DNA from: Rhynchobatus australiae | Taxonomy: Eukaryota | Direction: 5' to 3' | Length of the DNA: 64,000 bases | Assembly (NCBI GenBank): GCA_034780895.1 | Contig: JAUZTB010000069.1 | Coordinates: 19,312,582 to 19,376,581, forward strand | Shown here: one piece after another, positions 9,845 through 61,055 of the stretch | How the letters are laid out: the number at the start of each line of letters is the position of its first letter | Numbering within the stretch: position 1 is the first letter of the stretch | Program-made: the position numbers and the translations under genes | The notes under the pieces: generated by a model | What the model saw: the letters and a program-made list of their open reading frames with translations, nothing else | Database searches by the model: none | Told to the model about the DNA's origin: nothing

Positions 9845-10215
9845 TGGGTCAGTGTATATGGAACCCACCCTGAGTGAGGGTCAGTGTGTGTGATACCTGT
9901 CCCCCAGTGAGAATCAGTGTGTGTGTGGTACCCATCCCGCAGTGAGAGTCAGCGTATGTGGAACCCACCCTGAGTGAGGGTCAGTGTGTGTGATACCTGT
10001 CCCCCAGTGAGGGTCAGCGTGTGTTCGACCTGTCCCCCAGTGAGAATCAGTGTGTGTGTGGTACCCGTCCCGCAGTGAGAGTCAGCGTATGTGGAACCCA
10101 CCCTGAGTGAGGGTTGGTGTGTGTTGGACCTGTCCCCCAGTGAGAATCAGTGTGTGTGGGACCTGTCCCCTAGTGAATGTCAGTGTGTGTTGGACCTGTC
10201 CTCCAGTGAGAGTCA
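9845..10215 (+). repeat. ~33-bp minisatellite (gtgagggtcagtgtgtgtgggacccgtccccca family), ~11 units
   Basis: Direct tandem units are visible. The same unit occurs at 15425-15505(-) and 56270-56700(+). Confidence 0.9.
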
Positions 10216-10222
10216 GGTCTAC

Positions 10223-10929: not shown

Positions 10930-12120
10930 ACGGAAGCATGGGAAGAGGTGGCCAGGGCTCTAATGGAGATATTTGTATTTTCGTTACCCACAGATCAGGT
11001 ACCAGATGACTCGAGGATAGTTAATGCTGTCCCCTTTTTTAAAATGGGCAGTAGCAATAATCTTGGAAACTACAGGCTGGTGAGCTTTACATCAATGGTA
11101 GGGAAGTTGTTTGAGAAGTTTCTCAGGGATTTACGTTTATTTCAAAAGGCATGGACCGAATGAGAGTAGTCAGCATGGTTCTGTGCAGGGGCGATCATGT
11201 CTCTCAAATTTTTTGAGGAGGTAACTAAAAAGATTGATGAAGGTAGAGCAGCAGACATGGTTTACATGGACTTCAGAAAGGGTCTTGACCAGGTCCCACA
11301 TGGTAGTCTGGTCCAGAAGGTTAAGGCACAAGGGATTCAAGGCATGTTGGCAAACTGGATACAAAATTGGTTTGGTGATAGAAGGCAGAGGGTAGTGATG
11401 TCAGGTGTCTTTCTGACTGCTAGTCTGTAACTAGTGAATATTACAAGGATTGGTGCGAGGATCTTTGTTGTTTGTAATGTGTGTGGTTAACTTCGATGAG
11501 AATGTAGGCGATATGATTGGCAGGTTTGCAGATGACACGAAAATTGGTGGATCACAGATAGTGAAGAAGGTCATCTGAGGATACAGCAGAACATAGATCA
11601 GCTGGGAAGTTGGACATGGCAATGGCAGAGGGAATTTAATCCAGACAAGTGTAAGGTAATGCACTCTGGGAGTTCAAATTCTGGTTGGAAATACAGAGTA
11701 AATGGCAGAGACCTTAATGTACAGGAGCATTAATGTACAGAGAGACCCTAGGGTGCAAGTTCATAGCTATCTGAAAGTGGCAACACAGGTGGATATGAAA
11801 GTGAAAAGGCTATTGGTATTCTTGCCTTCATAAGCCAAGGCATCGAGTATAAGATTGGGATGTCATGTTGCAGCTGTACAAAACATTGGTTTGACCACAC
11901 TTGAAGTATTGGTACAGTGAAGCAATCAGAACTACAGGAAAGATATGGTAGCAATATACAGAGTGCATTAGAGATTTACCAGGATGTTGTCTGGAATGGA
12001 GGGCTGTAGTTATAAAGAGAGGTTGGATTTATTCTCACTGAAACAAAGGAGGCTGAGAGGTTACATTTCAGAGGTTTATACAATTATGAGGGACATAGAC
12101 CAGGATAGTCAGACTCTTTT
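10930..12120 (+). mobile_element. CR1 LINE reverse transcriptase region (decayed)
   Basis: ORFs read DQVPDDSRIVNAVPFFKMG...GNYRLVSFTSMVGKLFEK and FFEEVTKKIDEGRAADMVYMDFRKGLDQVPHGSLVQKV...WIQNWFGDRRQRVV. tttgcagatgacacgaaa encodes FADDTK. Confidence 0.95.
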
Positions 12121-15424: not shown

Positions 15425-15505
15425 TGCACACACACCGACCCTCACTGGGGGACGGGTCCCACGCACACCGACCCTCACTGGGGGACGGGTCCCACAGAGA
15501 CCAAC
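15425..15505 (-). repeat. 33-bp minisatellite family, 2-3 units
   Basis: Reverse complement of the 56270-56700 unit (translates RVGVRGTRPPV). Confidence 0.85.
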
Positions 15506-18089: not shown

Positions 18090-18620
18090 TTATTGGCGAG
18101 GTCCCGTGTTTCTTAAGCACATGGTGCAGTCGGTGGGCGTTGTCAACAGTCCCGAGTACCCACATCCAGCTGTTCTTACTGGGCGAGTGGTGTGACCCCA
18201 GCCTGCCTCCCCCGTGACAAATCTGTCATCGTTCTCAAAGCTGGCAATAACGATTGTGCAAATCCGTGCAAATGCCGACACCCAAGCACTTGCATTCCGC
18301 AACACCCTGGAGCCGTTTGGCAGACTCCTGATGTGCACTGGGTGTGAGATTCTGCTTCACACCCACTCGCCTTGGCGCATTTCGCACTGCAGAGTTTTGT
18401 GGGATCTGGTGTCTCACGCACCGAGTCCGAGTCCGAGTCCGAGCGGGGGAGTCTGCAACAGAAGGATAACTCCTCTCCCTGAGAGAGAGCGGCTGTAGCT
18501 GGCAGTGCGCCGAGCTGCAACTGCAGTGTGGGTAGTTGCCGAGAATGGGTAGCGAGGGAAGGAGACTGACTGGGCCGGAGAGAGGTAGCGTAAAACGACA
18601 AGACAGGCAGGAAAGGCTCG
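18090..18620 (-). promoter_or_regulatory. CpG island: probable promoter/5'UTR of an unidentified minus-strand gene
   Basis: Many CpGs in an otherwise CpG-depleted background. Non-repetitive apart from a (ccgagt)4 hexamer, and includes a minus-strand donor CCA|GTAAGA at 18180/18179. Confidence 0.7.
18180..18295 (-). CDS. Candidate first coding exon (MQVLGCRHLHGFAQSLLPALRTMTDLSRGRQAGVTPLA.), product unknown
   Basis: In-frame ATGs at 18295 and 18229 (the latter has A at -3). The frame is open up to the GTAAGA donor (phase 2). No family recognised; it could be 5'UTR only. Confidence 0.35.
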
Positions 18621-20130
18621 CAGTTTGGGGGGGGAGAGAACAAATCAGAAAATGAAGGGGAAATATAAAGAGAGGCAAAGGGCACAACAAGGGCAGACAG
18701 GACAACAGGAAACAAATGGAAGGAGAGCTAAAGGGAAATCGGGAACAAGGGAATGGGAATGAGAGAGAGAGAGATTAAAGAGCAAAGACAGAGGGAACCA
18801 GAATGGGAAAGAGACAGATGCAGAAAGAAATACGAGCTACAGAGGGAAATAGAGAGTGAACAGATAGAGAGGGAGTAAGAAAAAAAAGTGCAGGAAACAA
18901 GGAGTGATAAGCAAACGGATCGTGTGGAAGGCGTTCTGTCGATTCTGAATTTCTGGGAACGGTGCCTGTTACAATGAGGAAATCACGAACCAATTGCAAG
19001 GAGGGTGTTGTTAATACGGGGCCGAGCAGCAACGCTCCATGTGAGCCTAACCATCCCTCTGGACCTATGTGACGAACATGTCAGGCAGCACATGGTCCTT
19101 GAAGCATGTGGTATGGTCACAATCTTCCACAGGAAATGTTTTATCTCCCAACAGCCAGAACTACAGTGGGACTAAGAATACAGCTCCATCACAGAGGGCA
19201 GAACTCCAGAAATATACGGGATCGGGGATTTGGGCAGATGTGTGTCGGCAACTAAACGGAGAAACACACACACATGCAGACACACAGAGGCAAACAAGCA
19301 CACTTGCACATGGATTTAGAAACACAGACACAGATAGAAAACATACAAGGGTAAACACACACACAACAGGCAAAAAGATCACATAGTGATTCAGATGTTC
19401 ACAATCCCATGACTGTCACGCCTACAAATACTAACTCACTCAGTCACAGACACACACCAACCTACTCAGAGAGGAATGCACGCACCCCCCATAGGTAAAA
19501 ACACAAATGTTCAGTCCCAATGCACACGGATGCACATGGAAAGAGATGTATATGCAGACACACACACACAGACCCACACAGGAATATGCAAGCACACATA
19601 CACTGATATATAGTACCTGTACACAGACATTTAGATACTCATCGGAATTCACATACGTGTACAGGCATACACTCACAGCCAGACAGAAACAAAGTGACAA
19701 GTAGCGGTGATGAGGCAGTGATACAGATGAAGAGTCCTCTATGGGAAGCCAGGTACAGGCGAGATATGCAGATGAGAAGTCATGAAAACAACGCATGATG
19801 CAGTTCAGATGTCATATGACATTGGGCTGATGTTGTAATACGGAAGGTGTTATACAGATAAGCAGAGTGATAATCCTGAGGGTGGGATGGAGGCGAGAGA
19901 CAGAAACCAAGCAAGGGAGATTGACCGAGATGGCGAGAGAGAGAGCTGAAGGAGATTGTAAAGGAGGATGAGAGAGCAAGGGACTGAGACCAAATAGGAG
20001 GGATCAGTTGAGAGAGTGTGACAGTGGGTGAGCAAGATAATGCGAAATGTCTACTAAACAGGAAAGAGTGAATAAGAGAGAAAGGGAGCAAGAAAGAAAG
20101 AGGAAGTAAGGAAGAGAGGGAGACACGGCA
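18620..20130. repeat. GA-rich and CA-rich low-complexity tracts
   Basis: GA-rich at 18620-18910 and 19880-20130; CA-rich at 19260-19700. Confidence 0.8.
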
Positions 20131-28705: not shown

Positions 28706-29212
28706 TATTTATTAAACTGGCACCTGTGATGTTCCTTGTACCACCATGTCTCTGCTCAATGTTCAGCTGTCACTGTCCACTGATCTTGCTGCTGAGTTTG
28801 GTTGCACGACTGGAAGCAATATAATAAAAAATATTTCAACTCCATATCTAAAATGCTTATTATGCGAGTTGGCTGTTGAAGTTCCAACACATGTGGATCT
28901 CCAGCTGTGGACCCTGATGGACTTCAAGCACTTGGAAGGGACTAGGGTCAGATGTCTTCATTTTCATTTCCATAATAGGTTCCAGATGATGATCCACGAA
29001 TGCAGAATTTATTTAAATACATTTGTATTTTAAATTTGAAGCTGTACCTTACTATTATCAGTGAAGCAATTCCGCCATATTTATTGTTATTTGAGATACT
29101 TATGACTTCAGGAGGTAACTCTGGCTATTCACCCAAGTTTGTCATGCTGTGTCTGGGTCAGTGCATTTGTTTAGATACTAACATAGGATGAAGCAGCATG
29201 TCGTTGGCTCAC

Positions 29213-29448
29213 ACCTCAAATCAGTGGTGGGAAAGCTGCATGTGGGGTTCAACCTCCTCAAAGCTCCCCGATGAAGGACACATCCTTTGGCATGAGGCTT
29301 TTCCCAATAGGAATTGATGCTTCAGACTCTGTCCTCTACTGGGAGAGATCTGTACACAGCGTCTGCTATAACAGAGTGACATTTGTCCCACAGAGTAGGA
29401 CTTCACTGTTCTACTAGATGGAGTGCCATGAGTAAGGCTATACCCAAA
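29213..29448 (-). pseudogene. Pseudogene exon 7 (C-terminal helical lobe)
   Basis: Acceptor ttctgtctttcttgtag. Different frames give FGYSL / ALHLVEQ*SPTLWD / QSLKHQFLLGK / GKSLMPKDVSF / FEEVEP (compare ITPRIP-family YHLKTALLHL....W...KKLHHFFIGN...AEP.NLF). 3' end uncertain (possible gtgagc donor at 29212). Confidence 0.65.
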
Positions 29449-29599
29449 CTACAAGAAAGACAGAATTGCAGCTGAATTTTGGACGAGAGACAAAATTGCA
29501 GAAAAATTATATTTACTTTGATTCATTGCTGCAATTTGCAAAAATCAGTCTGTATGGTTGTTTGTAGATGGACACAGTTATGAGTTACACTTTTTTCCT

Positions 29600-29800
29600 T
29601 TCACAATCCAAAGACATGTGGGTTGGTAGGTTAACTGGCCACTGCAAATTACCCCTAGTATGTGGGTGTGGTAGGATCTGGGGGGAGTTGATGAGAATTT
29701 GGGGAGAATAAAAAAAATGGGATTAATTTAGGATTAGTCTAAATGGGTGGTTGATGCTCAGCACAGATTCAGGGTTTCTGTGATGTATCTCTCTGTGATG
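29600..29800 (+). mobile_element. HE1 V-SINE 3' part (in pseudogene intron 6)
   Basis: ccaaagacatgtgggttggtaggttaactggccactgcaaattacccctag...aaatgggtggttgatg. Confidence 0.85.
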
Positions 29801-29828
29801 CTACATCATAAAATGAGGAGAGTTTTAC

Positions 29829-30047
29829 CCGGTCAACTTTCGATTATTAACAATATGCTCCTTGCTTCACTGCAGTGATGTGATTGGCTTGGTTTATGTG
29901 GTCTGCTGCAAAAAGAGGTGAATCTAGGGATTGGGATTGGTAGGGCAAATGGCAAACCCCAGAAGTGGTTGAGAGGAAAGTCAGAGACCTCAGAAGCTGA
30001 AGTTGAATGGACGATCTGGCCTGTCGCAGCAAAGGACCAGCATACGT
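29829..30047 (-). pseudogene. Pseudogene exon 6 (219 nt)
   Basis: acattgcag| acceptor and CGG|gtaaaa donor. The entry frame reads DVCWSFAATG...LNHFWGLPFA (compare DWLLSFA); after frameshifts ANHITAVKQ and IVNNRKLTG (compare ACHLSCLQ..SKQSRLTG). Confidence 0.65.
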
Positions 30048-30289
30048 CTGCAATGTTGCATTTTAAGTAGGGCCTTACCATGGAACTTCAAAAAATAGGG
30101 TTAACCATATCACAGTGGCCCTTGGAATGTGGGGCAGTGCCCAACCTAGCCCAGGAGCTGTCCACACAGTTTAAATTGGTGATGGGAGGAATCGCTTGTG
30201 TCCCAAGAATGACCAGTTTGCTTATTCTCAGCTTCCATACATTGTGAGGTTATTTTAACAGAAACTAAATGGTATCAGATTAGTCACTC

Positions 30290-30670
30290 ATTATAAACCA
30301 ACCCCAGTGCACACCTACTTTGCTCTTGGCAATTATCCATAGGCACAATGTACATCTGTCCCATTACACATTTGGACTCATTAAGCACCGACCAATTTTA
30401 CATCTGCACATTACACATACCCATTATGCACTCTTGCTGGCTGCATGATCTGCCACAATTAAGGGAATATGCTCTGGGTCAGACTGTTCCACGAGTCTGA
30501 AGGAATGCCACATGGTCAGAGATGCCATCCTTCAGGCAATCTGCTAAATCCAGCTGGTCCCGTTATACACAAACTGTCATTTTAAAACCCATTATGCACC
30601 CACCCATTATACACTTGTCTGTTACAGAGACTGCCCATTATACATGCCCCATTATGCACCTACTGTTAGA
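30290..30670. repeat. Degenerate ~16-bp repeat (cccattat(a/g)cac...)
   Basis: Many cccattacac/cccattatgcac/cccattatac units in two clusters. Confidence 0.7.
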
Positions 30671-30869
30671 TACAAATTTTCTTTGGTAATTTGTTTGCAA
30701 CAGCTTATCACATAGTTATGTTTCATTTGCCACATGTTTAACAACAATAATTGTATGTTTTCATCCTGACTCTTAATATGTGCATTAATATAGCAACATC
30801 TCCAATACCTTACCGCAATGTCATACCCATGTATTTAACTAATCTCATGTTTATTCGATACCTGTGGCA

Positions 30870-31160
30870 TCACTTGGGAACATTACAGTGCTCTTTCTTT
30901 CAATAACATACTGACTTGTTATTTGGGAAACCAGAGTAACCATTTTGAACATAGCAAGGACCCACAAATGACTAAGAACTGAATGACTGGTTAACCTTCC
31001 AGGGATGACGTTGATGAAGGATTTGTTGGCCTGGACTTCAAAAACAAAACCTTGCCCTTTAATCAAAGGGTGCCCATAGGGCATCTGTTTAATAGATCAC
31101 CTGAAGGGTGGCATCTCTGACCATGCAGCACTCCTTCAGTGCCACACAACATTATGAGCC
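30870..31160 (-). mobile_element. Deu-domain SINE fragment
   Basis: catagcaaggacccacaaa...gatttgttggcctggac...gaagggtggcatctctgaccatgcagcactccttcagt is the reverse complement of the Deu-SINE core. Confidence 0.7.
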
Positions 31161-32109
31161 AGAAGATTTTCCAATCTTCTGAGTCTTGTATCATCTGCAA
31201 ACTTTGAAATTATGCAATTACGTCCTGTGTCCCCAACTCCAGGTCAGTAATACATTACAATAAGCAGTGGTCCTAACACTGACCTCACCATGTGCTTCCC
31301 ATCCAAATGATGCAGCTACAATATTCACCCCCAGAGGTCACATGCAGCAACTGTCCGTGCCCAATCTGACCTTGAAATCCCACATTCCTACTCGTCGGAG
31401 GCCAAAATCTGATACCCTTTGATCGATGCCCCACCCTCAGCTTGTTCCCAGCTTCTTGCTCTACCTGTGCCTCAGGACCACTGGTAGCCTCTGACCTGCA
31501 GAGCTGCGGAATCAAAGGCACCAAGCAAATCAAAGGCAGCCATTTGTGGAGCTGATCCTGAGCTGTAAGCAGTGGGTTAACCCAAGAATTGGCCCAGTGG
31601 AGTCTGCTCAGTCTCTCTTTGCATTCACTCCATGCCAGATCAACCCCCTGACGTGATTTAATATATAAAAATTAAAAACACATCTCTCTCTCATTGTTGA
31701 GAAAAGATGTTTTGAGTTGAGTGCTGCAGAGTGTGGAGAATGCAAAACATGGCCACGGCAGAAATTCTGGGAAAATCATTGTTGAGACAGATGGAAATAA
31801 TTGGAATCTTTCTCATGTTCATTTTAAACTGAATGTACAAGCGATGTCAGCAGTTACTCTGTTCTCTTGCACAGTGAGAGACATTCAAATGGGGGAGTGA
31901 GAAAGACCTTGTCCCCTCCTGCCACTTCTGCATCTTTAACGTTCCCCCCCCCCATCATTTGTGGACAAGCATCACCTCCTCAGACCTTAACATGGGGCAC
32001 AGCAGCAACAGCAAGATGGCAGGGAGATGGAATCAGACATTTCTGTAATTAATATACTCATTCACACTCCAGCAAGAAACCGACCTTTCCCTATTCACAT
32101 CAGAGCATC

Positions 32110-33780
32110 ACTGCTTTTTGATAAAGTAGTAATGAGGATTGATGAAGAAATTAGGTACTTTTTAAAGCTGTTTGACAAAGTACCCCATAGCAAAATGCAT
32201 AGCATTTTAGCAATTAGCAATATGAATGCCATTGGGATTAAGGGGACTACGGCAGTCTGGATGAAAAAATTAGCTCTGGGATAGAAAGACAGTTCTGAAC
32301 AGTTATTTTTCAGAAAGGAAGAAAGCATGCAGTAAGGCCAATATAGGACCACTGTTTATTGTAATGTATTACTGACCTAGAGTTGGGTACACATGGCATA
32401 ATTGCATAATTTCAAAGGCTGCAGACAATACAAAACTCAGAAATGTAATAAGCAATGAGAATCGAAACAACAGGCTCAGGAGACATTAATGGGTGAATTT
32501 AGCAGATTCAATCAATGTCAAGTGATATAAAAGAGAAAATGCTGGAAATATGAAGAAGATCAGGCAGCAGAAATTGAGAGAGAAACAGAACNNNNNNNNN
32601 NGGTCAATAATTCTAAGGCAATGACCTAACATTTTAGCTCTATTTCTCTCCCCATGGATACTGCCTAACCTCCTCGGTATTTACAGAAAATACTGTTTTA
32701 TCACAGATTTCTTGCATTTGCAGTATTTTGATTTGATAGTGTCAAGTGAAGCCTTTGGATAGGAAGATGAAGCAGAGACCAATGAACTAAAATATGTAGT
32801 ATAAATTTTAAATTGCTGCAGGAACTCAGAAACCAGGGTATGTGTTCACTATTGTTTGAAAGCAGCAGACAAGTTGAGAGTGCGTTCAGAACTCTTGGCT
32901 TTATAATTCGTGAAATGGAGAACATAAACAGAGAAGTTATACTAAAACTTCACAAAACCCTGGCAACATCTCAGCGGGAGCACTGAGTTCAGTTCTGGCA
33001 CCACATTTTAGGAAGGGTATCACAGTCCTGGAGAGGATGGAGAAGATATTTATCAGAATAATTCCAGAGATGTAAAAATTTGCATATGGTGAGACTGGAG
33101 AAATAGTTCTGTGCTCCTTAGAGCAAAGAAGGTTAAGAGAGTTGATAGAGATGTTCAAAATCACAATGTGCGAGTCAAAAGGGAGTGTTTCCACTGATGA
33201 GAGGTCGGGTGGAGGGTGGGTCAGGCCAGGCTAATCTGAGGACTCAGAGTTACTGTGGCTCACAAAGGACACAGCAGGAGAAAAGGAAATCTTTTTATGC
33301 AGCAAGCCATTGTGATCTAGAGAGTCTCAATCAAGGGGACATGGTTTCAAGGTAAGGAGTCAGTCAATTAAAACTGAGCTACGTAGAAATTTCTTTTCAG
33401 AAGGGAGTGAATCTCTGGAATTCTCTGCCCCAGAGAGTTGTGGAGGTTGGAATTATTTAAAATAGAGGTGGATATATTTTGGAAAGACCAGAGGATTGAG
33501 GGTTAGATCAGCCATGAACACATGGAATGGCGGAGCGGGCGCAAGGGGCCTGGTGACCTACTCTTGCTCCCATTTTCATGTGTTCTTGTGGAATGCACTG
33601 CCTGAAAGGGCAGGGAAGCAGACTTCAGAAACATTTAAAGAGGAATTGTCTAATTATTTGAAAATATGCAGGGGGTGGGGAAAATGCAGGTGTAGGACAC
33701 TAATCAGACAGGTCTTTCAAAGAACTTGCACAGGAAAGGTGTGCCAAATGGCCTCGTTCTGTGCTGCCAAGATTCCATTA
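32110..33780 (+). mobile_element. CR1 LINE RT/3' region with nested Penelope fold-back (~32525-32735) and a nested CR1 3' end
   Basis: FDKVVMRIDE...KLFDKVPHSK, gctgcagacaatacaaaact (ADNTK) and LERMEKIFIRIIP motifs; two CR1 tails. Confidence 0.8.
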
Positions 33781-33954
33781 CTTCTCTCAGCATCTGTCCA
33801 ACACCCTTGGTAACCATTGCCTTCAGTACCCAACTTATCACTCACACTCAAGGCTGACTTCACCATTACCTTCAATGCAGAATCCACCCAGGTGCCTGCT
33901 GCCAGTCACGGATCACCCGGAAATGATTAATCTGGGGTCAGGACTGGATAGGAC

Positions 33955-34280
33955 TAGAAGAGCCACTGCCTCACTGGGTTCAATCCTGACCTCAGGTGCT
34001 GTCTGTGTGGAGCTTATACATTCTCCCTGTGACTACATGGGTTTCCTCCTGGTGCTCCAATTTTTTCCTACACCCCAAAGGTGTGTGGGGTCAGTAGGTT
34101 AATTGGCCATCGTACATTGCCCCTGGTGTGTAGGCGAGTAGTAGATTCTGGGGGAAGTTAATGAGAACATGGGGAGAATAAAAAAAATGGGATCAATGTG
34201 GGATTAGTGTAAATGGGTGGTTGATGGTTGGCATGGACTCGATGGGCTGAAGGGCCCGTGTCTGTACCAATCGTGTATGT
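33955..34280 (+). mobile_element. HE1-type V-SINE (near full length)
   Basis: ctgggttcaatcctgacctcaggtgctgtctgtgtggag...ttctccctgtgactacatgggtttcctcc...gactcgatgggctgaagggcc. Confidence 0.9.
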
Positions 34281-34968
34281 GACATGATGAAGAGGTAATG
34301 GAATAGAAAACTGACAAACAGCCGCAGACTCTGAGCCCAGATTTGGGATTCCAGGCACACAAGCCCAAGCTTTCCATGAGTCAACTGCTTGGCTTGAGCT
34401 TTGGGAGTTCCTTCAGCTGGTGATCAACTGACACATGACCAACACTGATAACACACTCACATTACTGAAACCAAACAGGGTTGTCCTGTGACCACACTGT
34501 AATGCAGCAGAGAATGAGGGAGGCTGTGAAACTTCTTGGCATTGAACCAAACACAAACTCCATGGTCAATCTGTCACCAGCCTATTTGGTGAGGGTCCCT
34601 TGAGAACATACTCAGGTTCTGTCTCATTGCCTGAGATTCACTGCGGGGCCAGCATTTATTGTCCACCCTCGGGTGTGCTGATTAAATGATGGGTGGCATA
34701 TTGGATCTTGTTGTGCCTGTTCCCCAGGTGGAATATGTGGGCATTGTGGGATTAACCCTTCTGTACTGAACAAATTCTGCAAAACCTGAAGGGTTATACT
34801 GGTTCAGGCACTAAACTCATTGCCAAAACAGATCCCTGCCCACTTGAAATATGCTAATAATAAGGGTATGCTAATAATAATAATCTGTGTTATTTCCCAT
34901 TCTGTTAACGAGAGGTACGGGGATTGGCAGGCAAGTGGAGTTTAAAAAGGCATAAATTTATTCAGCAC

Positions 34969-35325
34969 CTTTCACTGGTTCAAGAAGGTCCCAAAGCATT
35001 TCACCATTTTGCAGCTGATGACAATATCCACAGAGCCCCAGGCCTGGTAATCCTGGCAGGACATTTTTTCACCATGCCCAGATAACACCAGCCAGTTGGC
35101 ACCAACCAACCAGCAACCCTTGGAGCCAGTTTCACACTGTGGGGCTGCAGTCCACATTGACCTACTATGGCAAGAGTGCCGTTTCCTTGACAACCCTCGA
35201 GCTTTCACAACACTCCAACTGCTCTGGGGATACTTGGTCTGATTCTAATCTACGAATGACCAGATTTCTGTATTTACAGCTTGCTCCAATGGGATTGTAA
35301 ACTCATGAATTTCTGGTTGCCTGTT
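34969..35325 (-). pseudogene. Pseudogene exon 5 (357 nt, phase 1-1)
   Basis: tattatag| acceptor and a weak AAG|gtgctg donor. Frame reads QATRNS*VYNPIGASCKYRNLVIRRLESDQVSPEQLECCESSRVVKETALLP**VNVDCSPTV*NWLQGLLVGWCQLAG...QNGEMLWDLLEPVK. Confidence 0.65.
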
Positions 35326-35989
35326 CTATAATATAACCTCTCAGGCAATGTGCTCACGTCACTTGACATCTCAGATAACCTTACCACCAACAATGTAGAG
35401 CAGTATGTGCCAGCTCACACCTGGCAATCATCACACCCATATCGGACCTCAATCCAACATCCCCAAGGTCAGGAGAGAGACCACAAGCTGATCCCTGAGA
35501 GCAGGAGTGAGACCTTCAACTGATCCCTCAGAACAGGAGTGAGCGCTGCACATCTCAAGTGGACAAGTGATTTGAAGCTGAGAAGCTGCACTCTGCCACA
35601 TCATTACAGAGAGTCTCGATCTTGCAAGGTGATTAACAGTTGGAATCACAACTCCTACACTTTGGTATTAAAGGGGGATCAGCTAGAGGAATTATTCCTG
35701 AGGTCATGGCTTTCTACAGAATCGATTTTTGGCCATGTAAAGCTTTTCCTTATCTTGCAGTTTTCTCCGTTCACTGAGGGGAGGAAGTCAGTAGGAGCAC
35801 AGATTGTAACTCTGTTGTCAGAGGAAAAGTTCAATGGTTGTATAACATATCCTCAGTCACAGGTTGTTTGGAAATTGTAGCAGCCTTGGTTTAATTGGAA
35901 GCTCTCCTATTTCTGGGCCCTAAGGTCATGGGTTTTAACCCCAGAGATTCACACATATAATGCAGGCTGGGGATTCCGAAGAACCATAA

Positions 35990-36550
35990 AGGCAGTGCTG
36001 CACTGTCAGAGGGGCAGTGCCGAGGGAGTGCTGGACTGTCAGAGGGGCAGTACTGAGGGAGTGCTGCACCGTGAGAGGGGCAGTACCGAGGGAGTGCTGC
36101 ACCATCAGAGGGGCAGTACTGAGGGAGTGCTGCACCGTGAGAGGGGCAGTACCGAGGGAGTGCTGCACCGTCAGAGGGGCAGTAGCGAGCGAGGGCNNNN
36201 NNNNNNNNNNNNNNNNNNNNNNNNNNNNNNNNNNNNNNNNNNNNNNNNNNNNNNNNNNNNNNNNNNNNNNNNNNNNNNNNNNNNNNNNNNNNNNNNGGAG
36301 GGGTATGACTGAGGGAGTGCGGCACCATGAGAGGGGCAGTACTGAGGGAGCGCTGCACCGTCAGAGGGGCAGTACCGAGGGAGCGCTGCACCGTCAGAGG
36401 GGCAGTACCGAGGGAGCGCTGCACCGTCAGAGGGGCAGTGCCGAGGGAGCGCTGCACCGTCAGAGGGGCAGTACCGAGGGAGTGCTGTATTCTTTAATGG
36501 CCAGAACCGAGGGAGCACTACACTGTCTGATGAGCAGAACTGAGGGAGGG
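35990..36550 (+). repeat. 33-bp minisatellite (gagggagtgctgcaccgtcagaggggcagtac(c/t)), gapped
   Basis: At least 11 near-identical units are visible. The unit matches an internal Deu-SINE segment and follows a SINE head at ~35915-35990. Confidence 0.92.
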
Positions 36551-36639
36551 CTCTACTATCCAAGACCAGGAGAGATTGAGTGACACAAGAAGTGGTGGGG
36601 CCGGTTGAAGAAGTGGGGTGGGGGGTGAAGGCTCGGGAA

Positions 36640-36950
36640 TAGACAAAGGTAGGTCTTGAGGTGGTGCAGATAGGAAGAGATGAATAAAATCTGTAAGTAC
36701 TAGATGGAGAAGAGGGAAACAAAACTGTAAGATTAAAAACCAGAAATGCTGATTATCTGAAATTCTAGGAACAGTGTAGGAGGCCAAAGACTGAGGTCAG
36801 CATAGAAGTGGAATGGAGAACTAAAGTGACAGGCAACTAGAAGCTCAGGGTGTCCCTACAGACTGAACAGGAACATTCTGCAAAGAGGTCACCCAATCAG
36901 CATCTTGTTTCCTTAATGTAGAGACCCATTCCCCATAGTGAACATATTAC
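36640..36950 (-). mobile_element. Penelope-like GIY-YIG fragment (old)
   Basis: The minus strand gives LYIKETRC*LGDLFAE, a decayed copy of the 49800-49970 segment. Confidence 0.6.
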
Positions 36951-36962
36951 AGGTCTACTTAC

Positions 36963-37085
36963 CACAAGGATCTCTGTCCACTTCTTGAAACTTCAGTGCA
37001 AAGGACACAGAATTCCCAGGGTAAAGTGGGAACAGTAAGCCATGGCCAGCACATGTCTGGTGAATAATTCCACATTATAGAACAT
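36963..37085 (-). pseudogene. Pseudogene exon 4 (123 nt, phase 1-1)
   Basis: gcattacag| acceptor and GTG|gtaagt donor. Frame reads DVL*CGIIHQTCAGHGLLFPLYPGNSVSFALKFQEVDRDPC. Confidence 0.72.
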
Positions 37086-37788
37086 CTGTAATGCAATATG
37101 TGTTTGAGAGATGGTTCCAAGAGGACATGAGTCAATAACAAAATTGCCCTTCATCCAGGCAACATCATGTTGGGTCACACCAAGGTGTCAGGGGTTTAAC
37201 ATGTTGAACAGCACTGAACAGGGGAGCAAATGCTCAAATGAAGATTGCATGGACATCTTTGATGGCTCACTGTAGAGGAAGCTCTGCTTTGTACCCATCC
37301 CTTACAGTACCTGCTTGAGGAAAGTTCAATGCCAATAGCAGGTTTCACATTAATCAGTCTTCCGCTCCCGTTCACTGACCCTCATTCAATGGTGAAGGAA
37401 ATAATTCCCAAGAAATATGCTTCAAAAAAATAAATGAAGCTGCATGTTTGGAGAAAGATGACAAATTTTAATTTAAAAATGACAATTTCAACAAATTGTC
37501 AAATCATTGCAACAAATCATTTGCAGCTTTGGGTTGCTGTGTGCCTTTTTGCATTTACACACACATTTCATGTCTGCATAAACGTTTGTGCCCAGATATG
37601 CACATACATGTCAGTTTGTATTTGTGTAAATCTATATTTTAACCGGACAGGAAAGCTAGTAGGAAAGAGAGGGTAAGGCTGATTTTGTGTAAATGTAAAC
37701 CCAGTGATGAGTCACTGCAACATTACTTCATGGTGTGTCATTATTTATAGTTCAAGTACAGAAATGGAAAATCAGCCTGTGTTCCTAC

Positions 37789-37979
37789 CTGTCACTAAAA
37801 TGTTGCAGGTCAGAGCTCCTGCTCAGACTGCTGCTCACAGGCTAGGTTATAGCAGCCCACAGGGGTAAGCAGTCCTTGGGGACATTAAGGGAAGTCTAGA
37901 CAGTCTTTCTTCAATCTTAGACAGCTGATCTTCCACAAAATCTCTCCTCTGTGTCCTGAACTTGACTCCTGGCTCTGGC
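37789..37979 (-). pseudogene. Pseudogene exon 3 (191 nt, phase 2-1)
   Basis: ctttcctactttctatctaag| acceptor and CAG|gtagga donor. Frame reads PEPGVKFRTQRRDFVEDQLSKIEERLSRLPLMSPRTAYPCGLL*PSL*AAV*AGALTCNILVT. Confidence 0.75.
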
Positions 37980-38314
37980 CTTAGATAGAAAGTAGGAAAG
38001 TTCCTCTCATATGCAGGCTCTTTCACAGTCTGTAATCATTGTTCCATTCAATCCTTACCATGGCATATACGCACACATACTTTCAATAGAGGACAAACAC
38101 ATTATACAGAAATCCACCTCCCTCGTCTTCCTTATGACTCCAACAGATCTATTCATTACATTCTATTTACCCTTATAAATCTCAATTCTATAGCTTTAAG
38201 AATTACTAACAACGTTCTCTTTAATCTGTTTACAGGGCTGGCGATTTCCAATCACCTGCAGCAACCAATCTCCTGACCCCACTCCTGGCTCTCAATCAAC
38301 CTTGTCAAGGTCTT

Positions 38315-38490
38315 TGCATTTTATTTGTCTACCTGCACTACAGTTTCTCTGTAACTGTAACACTATACTGCATTCTGTTTTCTTTTTACCACCTCCGTGC
38401 AATTATGTATAGCATAATCTATCTGGATGGCATGCAAAACAAAACGCTTTTCACTGTATCTCGGTACATGGGACAATAATACAGCAAATA
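38315..38490 (+). mobile_element. Rex1-type 3' tail
   Basis: Highly similar to 16160-16320 (ctctgtaactg..acact..ctgcattctgttt...tttcactgtatctcggtacatg). Confidence 0.8.
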
Positions 38491-39076
38491 CCCCTTTCTC
38501 CCTTATCCCTTTCCCCCACCTCTCGCTCTCCTCGCCCAGCAGATCCCACACAAACTGCACTTTGGAAACTAACTTTGCCATCACCTATAGAGCAGAGGAC
38601 TTCCCTCCTCCCTTAACCACTCAGTTCCCTCCCAGACATCCTTCACCCACTCCAGCCATCCATCACAGGTCTGGATACATACCCCTACGGTGGGCCCATG
38701 TCCTTTGACCCACGCCACAACTTCTCCACTCACCCTCTGCCCTCACCTCCCATCTGTATGCTCTGCCCTTTCAGAGGGTAAACCAGGAATGGTTAAGGAG
38801 AAGCCAGTGATAGAGAGTTAAACAGCTTCTGGGAAGAGGAGTGGATCAGCTCTGAAGGAGTTAGTGTAGGAGGCAGAGTGATGCGAGTGATTACACAGAG
38901 CAATATGAGTGGAGGAGGATACTCATTGAAGGTTTGTGTCTGTGCTGGAACTGCATTAATCTCCGCCAAAGCATTTAGATAAACAAAGGGAGATAACGTC
39001 GTAAAGATGCAGAAATCTTGAGTGAGCCCTGGACAAACTGCTTTCATAAACAGACATTCCTGACAGACTACCTCAC

Positions 39077-39133
39077 CGAAACCAAGAGCCTGTGGAAAGC
39101 CAGACCTTCAATTACCAGTTAAGCAGGGACTGT
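39077..39133 (-). pseudogene. Pseudogene exon 2 (57 nt, phase 2-2)
   Basis: ctttgttatttctgtgctag| acceptor and TCG|gtgagg donor. Frame reads QSLLNW*LKVWLSTGSWFR. Confidence 0.65.
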
Positions 39134-39439
39134 CTAGCACAGAAATAACAAAGCGGTGAAAAGGAATGTGCAAGGGGTGAGAATCCCAGAGGAAGTGGGA
39201 ACAGAATTGTCAGGAGTGATGATGTCTGCAACAACTTCCAGTTTTTAGTCATTAGCCCCTCAACAACCTCAAGGCTCCCTGATGAAATGTGGGGCCCAGA
39301 CCCCAGCAAAGCACCCCCCTCCACCCCTGGAAATCCCTGTTCCCATGCAGATCCCAGGTGAAATGTCTGCTTTCAAGATAATTCCTGGTGTAAGTGTCCA
39401 ATTTAAAGAAATTATTCGTAAAGCAATAGCTGTCATCCA

Positions 39440-40500
39440 TTCAACTAAGTGAGATGATGTATATATACAGATGTGGCAGAAATGCAGACCTGTTGGTTGT
39501 GGGATTGCTTAACTCTGTCCACTCCATGCCGCTTTTGCTGTTTAGTATGCAGGTACTTCGGTGTTGCAACCTTGCTGGGTTGGAACCTTTGTTTTAAGTA
39601 TATATGGGATGCTCTTCTGCCCTCTTCATTGATCCAGGGTTGGTGCCCTGCTTGATTGTAATGTTGGGCATATGCCAGGCTATGAAACTACAGACTGTGA
39701 TGGAGTACACTTCTGCTACTGCTCATGGTCCAGAGTGCCTCATGGATGCCTGGGATTGAACTTGCAGGTCTGTACTGACAATATTCAATTGAGCATGGTG
39801 GGGGGTGCCCTCAGCCTGAAGATAGAACTTTACCTTCACAGGCTGTGCAGTGGTCACCCCATCAATGCAATCATAGACATAAGCATCTACAACAGACTGG
39901 TGGGCGAAGATGAGCTCAGGTAAGTTCATCCCTCATGTTGGTTCATTTGCCACCTGTCCTTCAGGACTCAGTCTGTCCTGATGGACATTGAGGTCAACAC
40001 GTAAGAGTACATTCTGTGCCCTTGCTACTTTCAGTGCTTTATTCAAGTGTTGGTTAATGTGGAGGAACACTGATTCATCAGCTGGGGGAGGATAGGAAGG
40101 AAGAACTGCGAGGAGGTTTCCTTGCCCATATTTGACCTGATGCCACTAGGGTTTGGGATCAATAGTGAGGACTCCCAGGGCTACTTCCTCCTGCTTGTAT
40201 ACCAATATATTACTATCTTGGTGGGACAGTCCTGCCAGGGTTTGTATTGGTGGACAGCATGGCTGGTCAGCTATAGAGTACAATTCGATGAATATGACTC
40301 TATCAGGCTCTTGCTTGATTAATCTGTGGGACAACCCTCCCAATTTAAGCACAGTCCCCAAGCCCCAGATATGCAATGAGGAGGATTTTGCAAGGTCAAC
40401 TGGGCTGGGAGCAACTTTGCTGTGTTTGAATTCTGTCCTTGGTGGGCCTGCAGTGTTACCTTTATTTGGCTTTAATGTAGTGATTATGATAGTTTAAGAG
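39440..40500 (-). mobile_element. Second CR1-type LINE family, 5' ORF2 endonuclease region
   Basis: ORF 40146..40376(-) reads IWGLGTVLKLGGLSHRLIKQEPDRVIFIELY...VYKQEEVALGVLTID, a decayed APE endonuclease. Confidence 0.75.
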
Positions 40501-40790
40501 GGCTGTTGAAAGACAATGCTCTGAGCCCAGTGTCAGATATAGGTCAGACAAGGTAAGGAGACAGATTTCCCCCTGTGAAAGACATTAGTGAACCAGACTG
40601 AATTTTAGACCATCTAGTAATCTCACAGTCACCAATACAGAGACTAGTGCTTTCATCATTAATTCCAAAAGATTTAAATAATTGAATTTAAATTGCACAG
40701 GTGTCATGGTGGGAACTGAAAATGTATCTCTAGATTGTTAGTCCAGCCATTCTGGATTACTCACCCAGTAATTTAACCACTGCCACTATC
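40500..40790 (-). mobile_element. tRNA-derived elasmobranch SINE
   Basis: The reverse complement reads gtggcagtggttaaattactgggtgagtaatccaga...ttcccaccatgacacc...tttaaattcaa...ctggttcactaatgtctttcac. Same family as 54670-54905. Confidence 0.7.
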
Positions 40791-40859
40791 CAGTGGGAAC
40801 TAGGATTTTTGGAAGTAACCACTGGGAAAACGACAATGCTCAGTGCTTGAGCCTTGGCT

Positions 40860-41635
40860 ATTTAAATTATGTATACAGATTTTCTAACATTACAATACTT
40901 GCAGGGAAAGTGAGCTCAGAAGAGATCCAAGAGGATGCAGTGAAACCAACATGTTAAACGAATGGGCAAAAAGATGGCAGACGGAGTATAATGTGACGGA
41001 ATGTGAAATTATCCTGTTTGGTGGAAAAAAAAGAGAACAGAATATTTTTTTTAAACTGAGAGAGATTAAAAATGGAGGTGAGCAGTGGGAAATTAACCAG
41101 CAGGTGCCGTGAGCAATTGAAAAGCAAATACGATGTCAGTCTTTATTACAGAAGGATTAGAGTACAAGAAGAAAAAAAAGTTTACTGAAATTACAGAGGA
41201 CTTTAGCAAAGCCACACCTGGAGTCTTTTATCTTCTTACCGAAAGAAGAAAAACATGCATTAGCGAGGTCCCAAAGACTTGGGATTGTCCAAGAGGACCG
41301 ACTCCGTAGTCCATCCTATATTTCCTAAAGTTTTGAAGAATCACATGAAACATGTAGAATCCTTAAGAGGTGTGACAGGGAAGATGTCCTCCTGACGAGC
41401 TTGGTCATAATGTCAGGATAGGGGCTGGTGATTTAGGACCAACTGAGGGGAAATGTCTTCACTCAGGATATTCTGTACTCCCAAAGGTCTGTCATGGTCA
41501 ATCAGTGATGTCAGCAAATCTTGGACACTGCGAGGGTCAAAGAATCAAAGGGATGGTATCGATGTCAAACATCACACAATCTTATTGGATGGCAGAGCAG
41601 GCCCAAGGTTTGTATGCATGCTCCTTCTCATTGTT
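40860..41635 (+). mobile_element. CR1 LINE 3' half (decayed)
   Basis: gaatgggcaaaaagatggcagacggagtataatgtg encodes EWAKRWQTEYNV; GLEYK motif; CR1 tail. Confidence 0.8.
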
Positions 41636-42629
41636 TTGTTTTTCCAGTTATTTTCTTCCAACTGGGTATCCAATAGAAATCACATCTTCCCAGTGGATTC
41701 CAGCTCTCCCACAAGCCTTTGAAGTTGTTTCCATGTGGTGTCAACTCAGTCACAAGAATGGGACTTCGTAACAAAGAGTTAAGACAAGATAAGATTTCTT
41801 TATTAGTCACATGTACATCGCAACACACAGTTAAATGCAGTGAGTTAGGGGGAAGGATAAAACAAAGGTCACAGGAAGATTCAGCCTAGATCATTTCAAC
41901 AGTATTTCTTAAACTAAGACATTTCTTAAACTGTAATTATTGCCATCAACAATTCATTACTCACAGCAGCCTACTATAGAGTAAACAATGCTAATTAACT
42001 ACGGCAACCTCCCCTAGAAAACACAGCTTAAATTTTCCCAAGCAAATACATTGAAGAAAAGTTACATGCGAATTGTGTTCATAAAATCAATTCCAGTCAT
42101 TACTGCAGTGTGATCACCAAACTTGCACGAGAGGGGAACTACTCAACCATCTCCATTTGATTGGCCATAATATTGTCACTAAATTCAGCCTCCCTTGAAG
42201 GGACAGAGGAAAAAAATTAGGAGAATAGCATTAATTGAGTGTAGAGTGAGAAGTTTCAGATGATTAGAGTGGATAAGGGGTATAGAGAGAAAACATTTCC
42301 TCTGGTGGTGAGTCAAAAAGGGCACATCCCTAAAATTGGGGGTATTGTCAGACTTCACGCAAAGGGCAATGGAAACTTACAACTCCCTCCCCCAAAGAGC
42401 TGTTGAGGCTGGGGTAAACAAATGACTCAGAAGTGAGACTCACAGATTTTTGTTACGTGTATACATAAAGGATTATGTAACCACTGCGGACAAATGGAGT
42501 TAGGATGCAGATTAACAATCATCTGATAGAGTAGGGAACCAACTCAAGACCCTGAACGGCCTCCAGCTATTCCAAAGTTTACATGTTATGTTCAGTTAGA
42601 ACCATCCAAATTTACAATTGGGCGATCCA

Positions 42630-42830
42630 GCTCCCTCACCCACTGGCCTCCTCAACAACCAACTCCCTCACTGAGTGAGTTCCTAGCCCACCTACCTGCT
42701 TTACTACCAATTGCCTCACCCAATGACTCCTTTACCGAGTGACTCCCTCACCCTCCAATTCCCTCAGCGAGTGACTCCCTCACCCTCCAATTCCCTCAGC
42801 GAGTGACTCCCTCGCCCACCGACTCATTCA
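42630..42830. repeat. Short tandem repeat (16/32-bp gagtgactccctcacc... units)
   Basis: Two perfect 32-bp copies of gagtgactccctcaccctccaattccctcagc plus degenerate flanks. Confidence 0.8.
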
Positions 42831-42889
42831 CTAACAATTATTAAAACATTGACCTTACCTTCAACGAATAACAAAGAGAAGAGCCCTCA

Positions 42890-43300
42890 CCGTTCGCGGG
42901 GCAGCCGATTTCTCCCACCTATCAGCATGGGGGTCGCAGGGAGACTTGCGCCGGGTCAAACCCGGGACATCTGCTTGATGAGGCCGGGCCGGGGGAAGGG
43001 GTCATGCTCCCCGCTGCATTCCGTGCGGCGTCCACCGGAGCAGCAAGGGGTAAGTGCCCTAGCAACTTCCAAGGGGACAGCCGGGGTAAACGGTGCTGAC
43101 GGCGGGGTGGAAAATAATCTCCCGCCATTCATTCGCTTACTCCTCCCCTCTCCCTGGCGACCGCTGGGGTTAGGGGAGACCAACCCTGGCGACCCTGTGA
43201 TGATCTTCGGACAACATATCGGGCCCATCACAAATACCTCCGTAACATTGCCTTCTCCACCCTCAGCCACCCCTTCCCCTGGATGCCAATTCTGACGCAG
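42890..43300 (-). promoter_or_regulatory. CpG-island promoter with X-box-like, E2F-like and GC-box motifs
   Basis: CpG-rich. GTTGCTAGGGCAC(-) at 43054-43066 (RFX X-box-like), GGCGGGAGA(-) at 43118-43126 and ggcggggtgg at 43101-43110. Confidence 0.7.
42891..42970 (-). pseudogene. Pseudogene exon 1 (coding part)
   Basis: Reads MSRV*PGASLPATPMLIGGRNRLPRE(R) and ends at ACG|gtgagg (phase 2, compatible with exon 2). An alternative donor AAG|gtaagg lies at 42859/42858. Confidence 0.55.
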
Positions 43301-43534
43301 CCTCTCTTCTCCCCTGTATAACCTGAAGGTCGACCATCATTCTGCCGCCTTTGTCCAAACCCACACCAAGTCTTGCTCACGCATTGTCCTGTGCTCGCTT
43401 ATCCTACCCCGGCTCCGGCCTCGGGGAATAGATTGATGTTCAAAATTCGGAACCTTGTTTCCAAATTCCTCCACGTAGCTTGTCCCTAAACTGTAAATCT
43501 CCTCCAACCCTATAACGAACGGCCGATACTTGCA

Positions 43535-52325: not shown

Positions 52326-53044
52326 TCATTTTTAGAGAGTATGCATGACTACGTGCTAGTGGACAGTGTAGCATGTGAAATGAAGCTCAAACATGCTATA
52401 CTTGCATTCATGTTTACATGGGTATATTTGTATACAAACACAATGAATGCAAAATTGTCTGAAGGTCTATCTGATTTGTTTATATGGATTATATGTGCAT
52501 GCAAGTCTGTATACATAGATGGGAATGTGACTGTATGGGGTGTAAGACTGACTGTGTGTCCATGTGACNNNNNNNNNNNNNNNNNNNNNNNNNNNNNGTG
52601 AGTCAGAGGATACAGGTGAGTGTGTGACTGTGAATGTGCTTACGAGTGTGGTTGGGAAAAGGGGGAAGCCATTCAGTACCCTGTGCCTGTTCTGCCATCA
52701 GCTAGGTACTGCAGATCACTCATGACAATCTCCTGTGCTGGGTCCACGGCTCTGAATCTCCCCATTGGAGCCACACCATTCATCTCAGTTCTGGATTGTT
52801 CAGTTTGCCCAGCCTCAGCAGTGTTTGGTGTGAGAGTTCCCAACCTCCTCCGTCCCCTCTGCACTGAGCTGCTTCCTGACATTACCCCTGTGCCCTTGCT
52901 CAGCACCTTTGTTCTGGAGTGCCCAATGGAGGAAAAGGGTTCTCTGTCCCTCATATCAAATCCCCTCATCACTGCAACCAACGCAGTTAGTCACACTGGA
53001 ACCTGTTGTATTCAAGCCTCATAGACAGAGCTCTCCCCGTCACA

Positions 53045-56269: not shown

Positions 56270-56700
56270 TACTGAGAGGGTTGGTGTGTGTGGGACCCGT
56301 CCCCCAGTGAGGGTCAGTGTGTGCGGGACCTGTCCCCCAGTGAAGGTCAGTGTGTGCGGGACCCATTCCCAGTGAGGTCAGTGTGTGGAACCCATCCCCA
56401 GTGAGGGTCAGTGTGTGCGGGACCCATTCCCAGNNNNNNNNNNNNNNNNNNNNNNNNNNNNNNNNNNNNNNNNNNNNNNNNNNNNNNNNNNNNNNNNNNN
56501 NNNNNNNNNNNNNNNNNNNNNNNNNNNNNNNNNAGGGTCAGTGTGTGTGGGACCCGTCCCCCAGTGAGGGTCGGTGTGTGTGGGACCCGTCCCCCAGTGA
56601 GGGTCAGTGTGTGGGACCTGTGCCCCAGCGAGGGTCAGTGTGTGGGACCCGTCCCCCAGTGAGGGTCAGTGTGTGGAACCCCTCCCCAGTGAGAGTTAGT
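56270..56700 (+). repeat. 31-33-bp minisatellite (agggtcagtgtgtgtgggacccgtcccccagtg), gapped
   Basis: At least 10 direct units visible. Confidence 0.92.
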
Positions 56701-57889
56701 GCCTCAAAAAGGTAATCACTTGATTAAAACAAAAACAGCCAAAGATCAACATTTAAAGTTCTTGCAGTAGCTTCTTTCTCCTGCCGACTGGTTTCCTGGC
56801 GTATCCCTAGATTTTCAGCAGTGTTTGTGATGGCAGTTTCTGGGATTGATTCACTTGTTGCTAGAACCCTGATGATCTGAGGATGTGGCTCCTGGAGTCA
56901 AGGTTCTTGCCTCATGGACTGTCGGCAGCTGGAAGATCAGAACCTCCGTGCCCCTGCCGACTGAACTCTGCACACATTCACCTTCAACGTGTTAACAGGA
57001 CTTCATTCCATCCTTCTGTCAACAGCTCTACCCTGCATTTGCATTCTGTCTTTGACATGCAAGTTGTCTCTAAGCTCTTTGTCGGCACGATATCAAGCAA
57101 AATTTGACAAAGTGACATGTGGATAAACAAGGCTAGCTGCCCAAAACATGGTCAAAGGAGGAATTCCAGGAATGTCTTGAAGGAGAAGAGTGGAGTAGAC
57201 TGGTCAGATATTTAGGGAGAGAACTCCACAGCTCAGGACTTTGGCGTCTGAAGTCACAGTTACCACGGGTGGAGCAGGAAGTAATGAGATGAACAAGAGA
57301 TCAGAAATGGAAGAACGTCCCTTCACTGTGGAGCTGGAGGTACTTCCTGAGATTGGGAGGGATGAAGTGATGGAGGGAAACTGGGATAAGATTTTGTTTT
57401 AACTGAGTCTTTGCTTAATAGGGAGTCGGTGATGGTCAGGGAGCACAGAGGTGAGGGGGGAATAGGAGTCAGCCAAGATGTAAAGAGTAGCTTTGGATAT
57501 CTTTAAGACTATGGAGGGTGGAAGACAGCACCAGATAAAGCATCCTAACCTTTTCCAGTCTTGTATTAATACAGCCCAAGCGCCACCCTGCTCCCAACCA
57601 ATACCTTTGAATCTTTAAATAAAATGTATATGAACAAATGTAACAATTAAATGTAATGTTTATTTGTCTGACAATGACCTGATTTTTCCAAAATTTCGTG
57701 GTTCCCTCTTCGCTTCTGACAAGCACCAAGAGAGAAACATGGAAGGCTGGGGAGCAGAGGATGTGGAGCGGCTGGTTTCAACACAATTACCCTCAAATTA
57801 GTTTCAGAAACTGATGATTGGTGAGTGAAACTCAAAGGGAGAAAACAGAGCTGGGTTTGTGTGGTTTTTATTAAAGTTCCTGAATAATA

Positions 57890-60474: not shown

Positions 60475-61055
60475 TCATAGAATTATACAGCATAGAAACA
60501 GGCCCTTTGGTCCAACTTGCCCATACCTTCCAAGATGTCTAGCTGAGCTAGACCCATTTGCCTGTGTATGTCCCACATCCCTCTGAAACTTTCCTTATGT
60601 ATCTGTCCAAATGTCTTAAACATTGTAGTTATACTCACCTCTACCACTTCGTCTGGCAGCTCATTCCATATACCCACCACCCTTTGTGTGAAGAAGTTGT
60701 CCCTCAGGTCCCTTTTAAATTTTTCCCCTCTTACCTTAAATCTGTGCCCTCTAGTTTTAGAATCCTTTACCCTGGGAAAATGACTATGACCTCTGAGGTT
60801 TAATATGCCTCTATGGTCACCCCTCAGTCTCCTACACCAGGGAAAAAAATCCCGGCCTATCCAGCCTCTCCTTATAACTCAAGGCCTCCAGTCCCAGTAA
60901 CATCCTCGTGAACCTTTTCTGCACCTCTTCCAGCCTGATGACATCCTTCCTAGAGCTGGGCGGCGAGACTGCACATAATACTCCAAATGTGGTCTCACCA
61001 ACGACTTGTACAGCTGTAACATGACGTCCTAACTCCTGTACTCAGTGCCCTGACG
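60475..61055 (-). mobile_element. CR1 LINE 3' part (younger)
   Basis: ORF 60483..60680(-) reads MVGIWNELPDEVVE..TITMFK; LEEVQKRFTRMLLGLE and QLYKSLVRPHLEY on the minus strand. Confidence 0.9.

Follow-up and report, generated by a model that had tools for sequence, protein, structure and literature searches.

A chain of seven exon-like segments was found on the minus strand of a 64,000-nt stretch of the Rhynchobatus australiae genome (assembly GCA_034780895.1, contig JAUZTB010000069.1, positions 19,312,582 to 19,376,581; hereafter the window), which has 43% GC, 17 N gaps, 33-bp satellites and remnants of long interspersed nuclear elements (LINEs). A first-pass annotation, made from the sequence alone, had described these segments as the exons of a dead gene of the Mab-21/cGAS-like family, resembling ITPRIP and MB21D2. 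All seven are preceded by AG and followed by GT, exactly as it had drawn them (14 of 14 ends), and are separated by six introns, each with GT/AG ends; four of the five internal exons have a length divisible by three (Table 1).

Table 1. Features of the seven-exon locus, in window coordinates. Acceptor and donor scores are percentiles among the 4168 AGs and the 3596 GTs of the minus strand.
Feature	Position	Strand	Length (nt)	Acceptor	Donor	Remarks
CpG island around exon 1	42801..43440		640			GC >= 0.55, CpG observed/expected >= 0.6
Exon 1 as first drawn	42891..42970	-	80	80	98.5	Good donor, weak upstream AG, no family motif
Exon 2	39077..39133	-	57	94	96.5	Splice signals only, no family motif
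Exon 3	37789..37979	-	191	95	99.2	D1-type helix motif at 37945 and strand motif at 37813, same frame; 3 stops
Exon 4	36963..37085	-	123	89	99.6	Strongest donor; 1, 0 and 1 stops in the three frames
Exon 5	34969..35325	-	357	65	86.5	D1-type motifs at 35128, 35042 and 34993, across two frames; weak acceptor
Exon 6	29829..30047	-	219	64	94.5	W-x-L-x-F at 29961, LQ-x11-LTG at 29875, two frames; weak acceptor
Exon 7, coding remnant	29213..29448	-	236	99.5	83.2	LHL-x8-W at 29423, H-x-F-x-x-G-x17-EP at 29319, two frames
First AATAAA 3' of exon 7	29080..29085	-				Candidate polyadenylation signal; a second begins at 29013

Splice sites were scored with approximate matrices, based on textbook frequencies, and their significance was calculated on the assumption that the best-scoring site could have been chosen at a distance of up to 6, 15 or 30 nt. 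Combined over the 12 internal sites, this gave p = 2e-8, 2e-5 and 2e-3, respectively; at 30 nt freedom the donors alone reached p = 1e-3 and the acceptors alone p = 0.15, the donors carrying most of the signal. Exons 2-7 were also richer in GC than their flanks, on average by 5.6 points (p = 0.007, 5000 random placements). The exon chain is regarded here as real, its internal sites beating chance. Its two outer limits are doubtful, both the AG before 42970 and the GT at 29212 being weak.

This AG is weak and lies in a CpG island (the window has three such stretches), so that exon 1 more probably represents a first exon beginning further upstream, inside the island, which likely holds the promoter and the true start of the first exon. 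A 68-codon ATG frame within the island (42922-43128, minus strand), which runs through two stops and then joins the spliced frame with the fewest stops, is a candidate for the original start. A 16/32-bp tandem repeat occupies 42714-42825, just inside intron 1 and 65 nt from the exon 1 donor. At the opposite end, exon 7 is probably the last exon, longer than drawn and running to the AATAAA at 29085 or at 29013.

The coding frame is dead and no protein can be produced from it. The three spliced frames contain 20, 13 and 18 stops per ~420 codons (background 0.047 per codon), and the longest open stretch of the spliced product is 104 codons. Along the path joining the family motifs described below, the minimum number of stops was 12 with 4 frameshifts, 9 with 6 or 5 with 9, which confirms the dead frame first described (at least 10 stops plus frameshifts); damage of this extent appears too great for an assembly error. 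Having kept its introns, with their GT/AG ends, and having a disabled reading frame, the locus shows the marks of a non-processed pseudogene, i.e. of a gene that was once spliced, as had been proposed.

To place the locus within the family, spliced readings were compared with parts 2-7 (of 8) of the DANGER alignment supplement (PMC1784063) and with the MB21D2 rows of Table S1 of PMC9980059; statements on family rows refer to these portions. The peptides previously quoted from the window were all present in its translations, and the family segments named as their counterparts were recovered in the two supplements, the last of them from the D1B row. Nine degenerate motifs, common to the window and to the rows of the D1 group (ITPRIP or DANGER1A, D1A; ITPRIPL1, D1B; ITPRIPL2, D1C), were found once each in exons 3, 5, 6 and 7, in the family order and at near-equal spacing (spliced codons 58, 102, 217, 245, 262, 299, 327, 351 and 386). 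Six of them are unique to the exons among 123,000 six-frame positions; the remaining three also match at 8 scattered places outside the exons, which form no chain; the Markov expectation inside the exons was 0.0002-0.03 for each of the nine. The start-to-start spacings in the window and in human D1A, the latter counted by hand, were 44/45, 115/97, 28.7/28, 16.3/15, 37/34, 28.7/29, 24/29 and 34.7/37, corresponding to differences of -1, +18, +1, +1, +3, 0, -5 and -2 codons. Seven of eight are thus within 5 codons of D1A, which was equalled by 1e-6 of random ordered placements, a value that, like the rarity of the motifs, is too small by an unknown, large factor because the motifs were written after seeing the window. 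Five of the nine lie in the C-terminal part, the most conserved one according to PMC1784063, or in the strand directly before it.

The motifs also bear on the reading frame across the introns. All three motif pairs that span a junction (exons 3 to 5, 5 to 6 and 6 to 7) share a common spliced frame, which is expected about 1 in 27 times by chance, therefore the sixth junction is in phase too. The compatible phases formerly claimed for the first five junctions hold wherever motifs flank them, but no motif backs the frame then chosen for exon 4 or for the initial half of exon 5. The exon 3 helix had been aligned with MB21D2, and the D1A row fits it better, the distance from this helix to the next strand being 44 codons in the locus and 45 in D1A.

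We interpret the locus as probably an old, non-processed pseudogene of an intron-rich gene with a Mab-21 fold, of ITPRIP type (D1: ITPRIP, ITPRIPL1, ITPRIPL2); a Mab-21 origin, whichever the branch, is quite likely. The family assignment, based on the order, spacing and phase of motifs against a published alignment rather than on a search statistic, is likely but unproven. The proposal of a Mab-21, ITPRIP-like gene is supported by these three properties, but it obtained no significant Mab-21 match in databases.

Several results, in addition to the post hoc choice of the motifs, weigh against the ITPRIP-type assignment. Exon readings were searched with stops as X, one genomic frame at a time, the longest in-frame piece being ~50 residues with stops; exon 2 (19 codons) was below scannable length and for exon 1 the scan covered a single frame. 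No Pfam family was found in 16 exon-frame readings or in 6 genomic read-throughs. Eight exon queries against PDB sequences retrieved nothing relevant, three of them giving unrelated matches only (E 0.35-3). A word-indexed search of 5.8 billion proteins with exon 5 (two frames) and exon 3 yielded 63, 1 and 3 candidates and no hit, and 1.84 billion representatives, all scanned with exon 5 as read in the first-pass annotation, gave none at E <= 0.001. Six further D1-wide motifs, held out from the comparison, were not found at their expected places (0/6), and when one mismatch was allowed the two matches obtained were both misplaced. An N-terminal signal peptide or transmembrane segment is a feature of the D1 group (PMC1784063), and no strong hydrophobic N-terminal segment was seen in exons 1-3, the best 19-residue hydropathy means per frame being 0.69, 1.39 and 1.46, with both the N-terminal frame and the exon set uncertain. 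Furthermore, the frame originally drawn contains 20 stops in 421 codons, i.e. the background stop density. Read in phase 0, exons 4-7 have as few as 6 stops over 311 codons (P = 0.010 without correction, for one of three frames), and the first part of this low-stop frame resembles by eye the D3 (MIEF) rows, therefore a by-eye likeness can be obtained in more than one frame.

The power of the searches on decayed pieces is low, as indicated by a LINE reverse-transcriptase remnant of the window that reached just E = 0.001, below the Pfam cut-off. Single-frame searches thus weakly exclude a close, intact, catalogued relative. Self-BLAST of the window for an intact or tandem copy retrieved repeats only, none within the seven exons, and six short window peptides searched in the supplements of PMC9980059 gave no match in two cases and, in the other four, unrelated proteins among the matches listed.

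The negative outcome of every database search, the failure of all six held-out motifs and the background stop density of the frame first drawn would all be accounted for if the segments were real exons of a non-coding transcript that is spliced, or what is left of some unrelated gene, with the likeness to ITPRIP arising from the fitting of short motifs over three frames. We regard this as unlikely, given that nine motifs concur in their order, in their spacing and in their phase across junctions, and that searches are weak on fragments of this kind, as seen with the LINE remnant.

That the pseudogene belongs to another Mab-21 branch, being MIEF-like (D3), MB21D2/TMEM102-like (D2) or derived from a once-active cGAS-like receptor (cGLR), seems more unlikely still. 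A by-eye likeness to MIEF1/MIEF2 (MiD51/MiD49; D3A/D3B) is indeed present in the low-stop frame of exons 4-5 and at the start of exon 7, and one to D2 in parts of exon 5, with two superfamily motifs, the aromatic-D-hydrophobic-x-PV strand and W-x-L-x-F, shared by the locus with MB21D2/TMEM102 (D2A/D2B); moreover, relationships among the DANGER groups are described as ambiguous (PMC1784063). Against this, the frames resembling D3 had no PDB match, and PG-x-L-x-I, LQ-x11-LTG and H-x-F-x-x-G-x17-EP match D1 rows in both pattern and spacing, which D2, D3 and D4 rows do not. The C-terminal motifs of the locus follow D1 and not D3, and the LTG and terminal EP motifs are missing from the D2 rows. MB21D2 as the nearest relative was ranked low, the exon 3 spacing and the C-terminal motifs fitting D1 better.

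As to the cGLR variant, cGAS and cGLRs (Li et al. 2023) would belong to the same fold superfamily if the family assignment holds, but their active-site motif is not in the locus. According to the definition h[QT]GS x8-20 [DE]h[DE]h x50-90 h[DE]h (PMC9980059), neither h[QT]GS nor [DE]h[DE]h occurs in the three spliced frames, where the third element only (W-D-L, codon 262) is present, and the strand expected to hold two acids reads T-C-N. MB21D2, by comparison, is counted as a cGLR with a complete putative active site (PMC9980059). The catalytic residues may have been erased by decay. An active cGLR was nevertheless ranked low as an identity, since the first two active-site elements are not in any spliced frame; judging from its readings, the locus should not be classed as a cGLR and the label 'cGAS-like' finds no support. 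Table S1 of PMC9980059 contains 4 chondrichthyan rows, all of MAB21L3 type and with no by-eye likeness to the seven exons, and no entry named inositol or TMEM102.

Finally, it is very improbable that neither exons nor homology are real and that both the AG/GT ends and the peptides are chance selections from repeat-rich DNA evolving neutrally, where such dinucleotides abound (4168 AGs and 3596 GTs on the strand), for although two acceptors are unremarkable (64-65 percentile) and the acceptors alone lose significance at 30 nt freedom, the donors do not, and the GC excess, the CpG island at the 5' end and the exon lengths divisible by three would remain to be explained.

Returning to an ITPRIP-type pseudogene, the ancestral gene would have encoded a nucleotidyltransferase-fold domain (exons 3-5) followed by a helical C-terminal domain (exons 6-7). 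Its product most likely had no catalytic activity and served in binding or as a scaffold, the role reported for ITPRIP, because the D1A rows are without the full acidic pair at the catalytic strand (PMC1784063), only some Mab-21 members retain the catalytic residues (Kuchta 2009, PMC2794190) and ITPRIP is reported to be a protein of the outer nuclear membrane that binds and inhibits inositol trisphosphate (IP3) receptors in vitro (PMC6550788). Like the ITPRIP group, the locus is without the full catalytic motif; unlike the D1 genes, it has a dead frame, six D1-wide blocks were not found in it and no signal peptide or membrane segment was recognised in its exons 1-3. It also has four introns inside the Mab-21 region, which in vertebrate D1 genes, to our knowledge, lies within one exon.

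After the loss of the protein function, about 9-12 stops and at least 4 frameshifts would have accumulated. As 9-12 stops per ~410 codons are roughly half the neutral level, the stop count suggests a divergence of 0.1-0.3 substitutions per site since the death of the gene. At such a divergence, the chance that all 24 bases of the 12 internal GT/AG ends survive is ~0.08 to 0.0002. Because the CpG island is intact, as are all of the 12 internal GT/AG ends, the sequence suggests, though less surely, that the locus is still transcribed and spliced, and may be kept today as a non-coding, decay-prone RNA, unless the drawn boundaries are in part neighbouring sites. A lineage-specific loss had been put forward in the first-pass annotation; the locus could just as well be a duplicate that died while the gene remained intact elsewhere.

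Among titles and listings of the literature, no paper was found that describes an ITPRIP-like gene with several exons, or such a pseudogene, from cartilaginous fishes. If the assignment is true, the locus points to a vertebrate paralogue of the Mab-21/ITPRIP kind whose exon structure is its own, outside the 12 human Mab-21 members listed by Kuchta 2009 (PMC2794190), and its exon coordinates can be used directly to look for an intact orthologue and to trace how the ITPRIP genes arose. Being a decayed gene with no protein product, it says nothing yet on innate immunity; it leads towards a lost gene rather than a new immune sensor. A bolder and unlikely extension would see in it what remains of an undescribed D1-type lineage that carried introns in early jawed vertebrates and was possibly the retroposition parent of the intron-poor ITPRIP, ITPRIPL1 and ITPRIPL2. 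On this view the gene would still be intact in certain cartilaginous or basal bony fishes, and here it would survive as a non-coding transcript that is spliced.

As regards the surroundings, no intact protein-coding gene was identified in the window, Pfam analysis of the 148 longest of 828 open frames (>= 40 codons) giving 7 weak hits, none above cut-off. Neighbouring genes were likewise not identified by Pfam on 16 candidate readings, by ESM Atlas on two open frames or by exon-like scans, and an Rfam scan gave no match. A second CpG island (18101-18700) contains on the minus strand an open frame ending at a good GT donor near 18180, which has the appearance of a first exon, with its gene continuing downstream; this frame had no Pfam or ESM Atlas match, further exons were not found, and its attribution to a RASGRP member was a guess that gained no support. 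An open frame of 105 codons with ordinary composition and no Pfam match, at 52676-52990 on the minus strand, may be due to chance. Protein-like but broken readings were seen on the plus strand at 62200-62700, where a 109-codon minus-strand frame had no Pfam or ESM Atlas match; the plus-strand readings resemble by eye a remnant of a long terminal repeat retroelement pol.

Arrays of 33-bp satellites are located at 9849-10216, 15427-15496, 35990-36552 and 56276-56701, three of them being related to one another on either strand; one array falls within intron 4, which separates exons 4 and 5, and is scored as rich in CpG. The LINE remnants lie at 11170-11427 on the plus strand, with the weak RVT_1 match (E = 0.001) mentioned above, and at 60483-60878 and 2027-2393 on the minus strand, the latter two having a related stretch in common.

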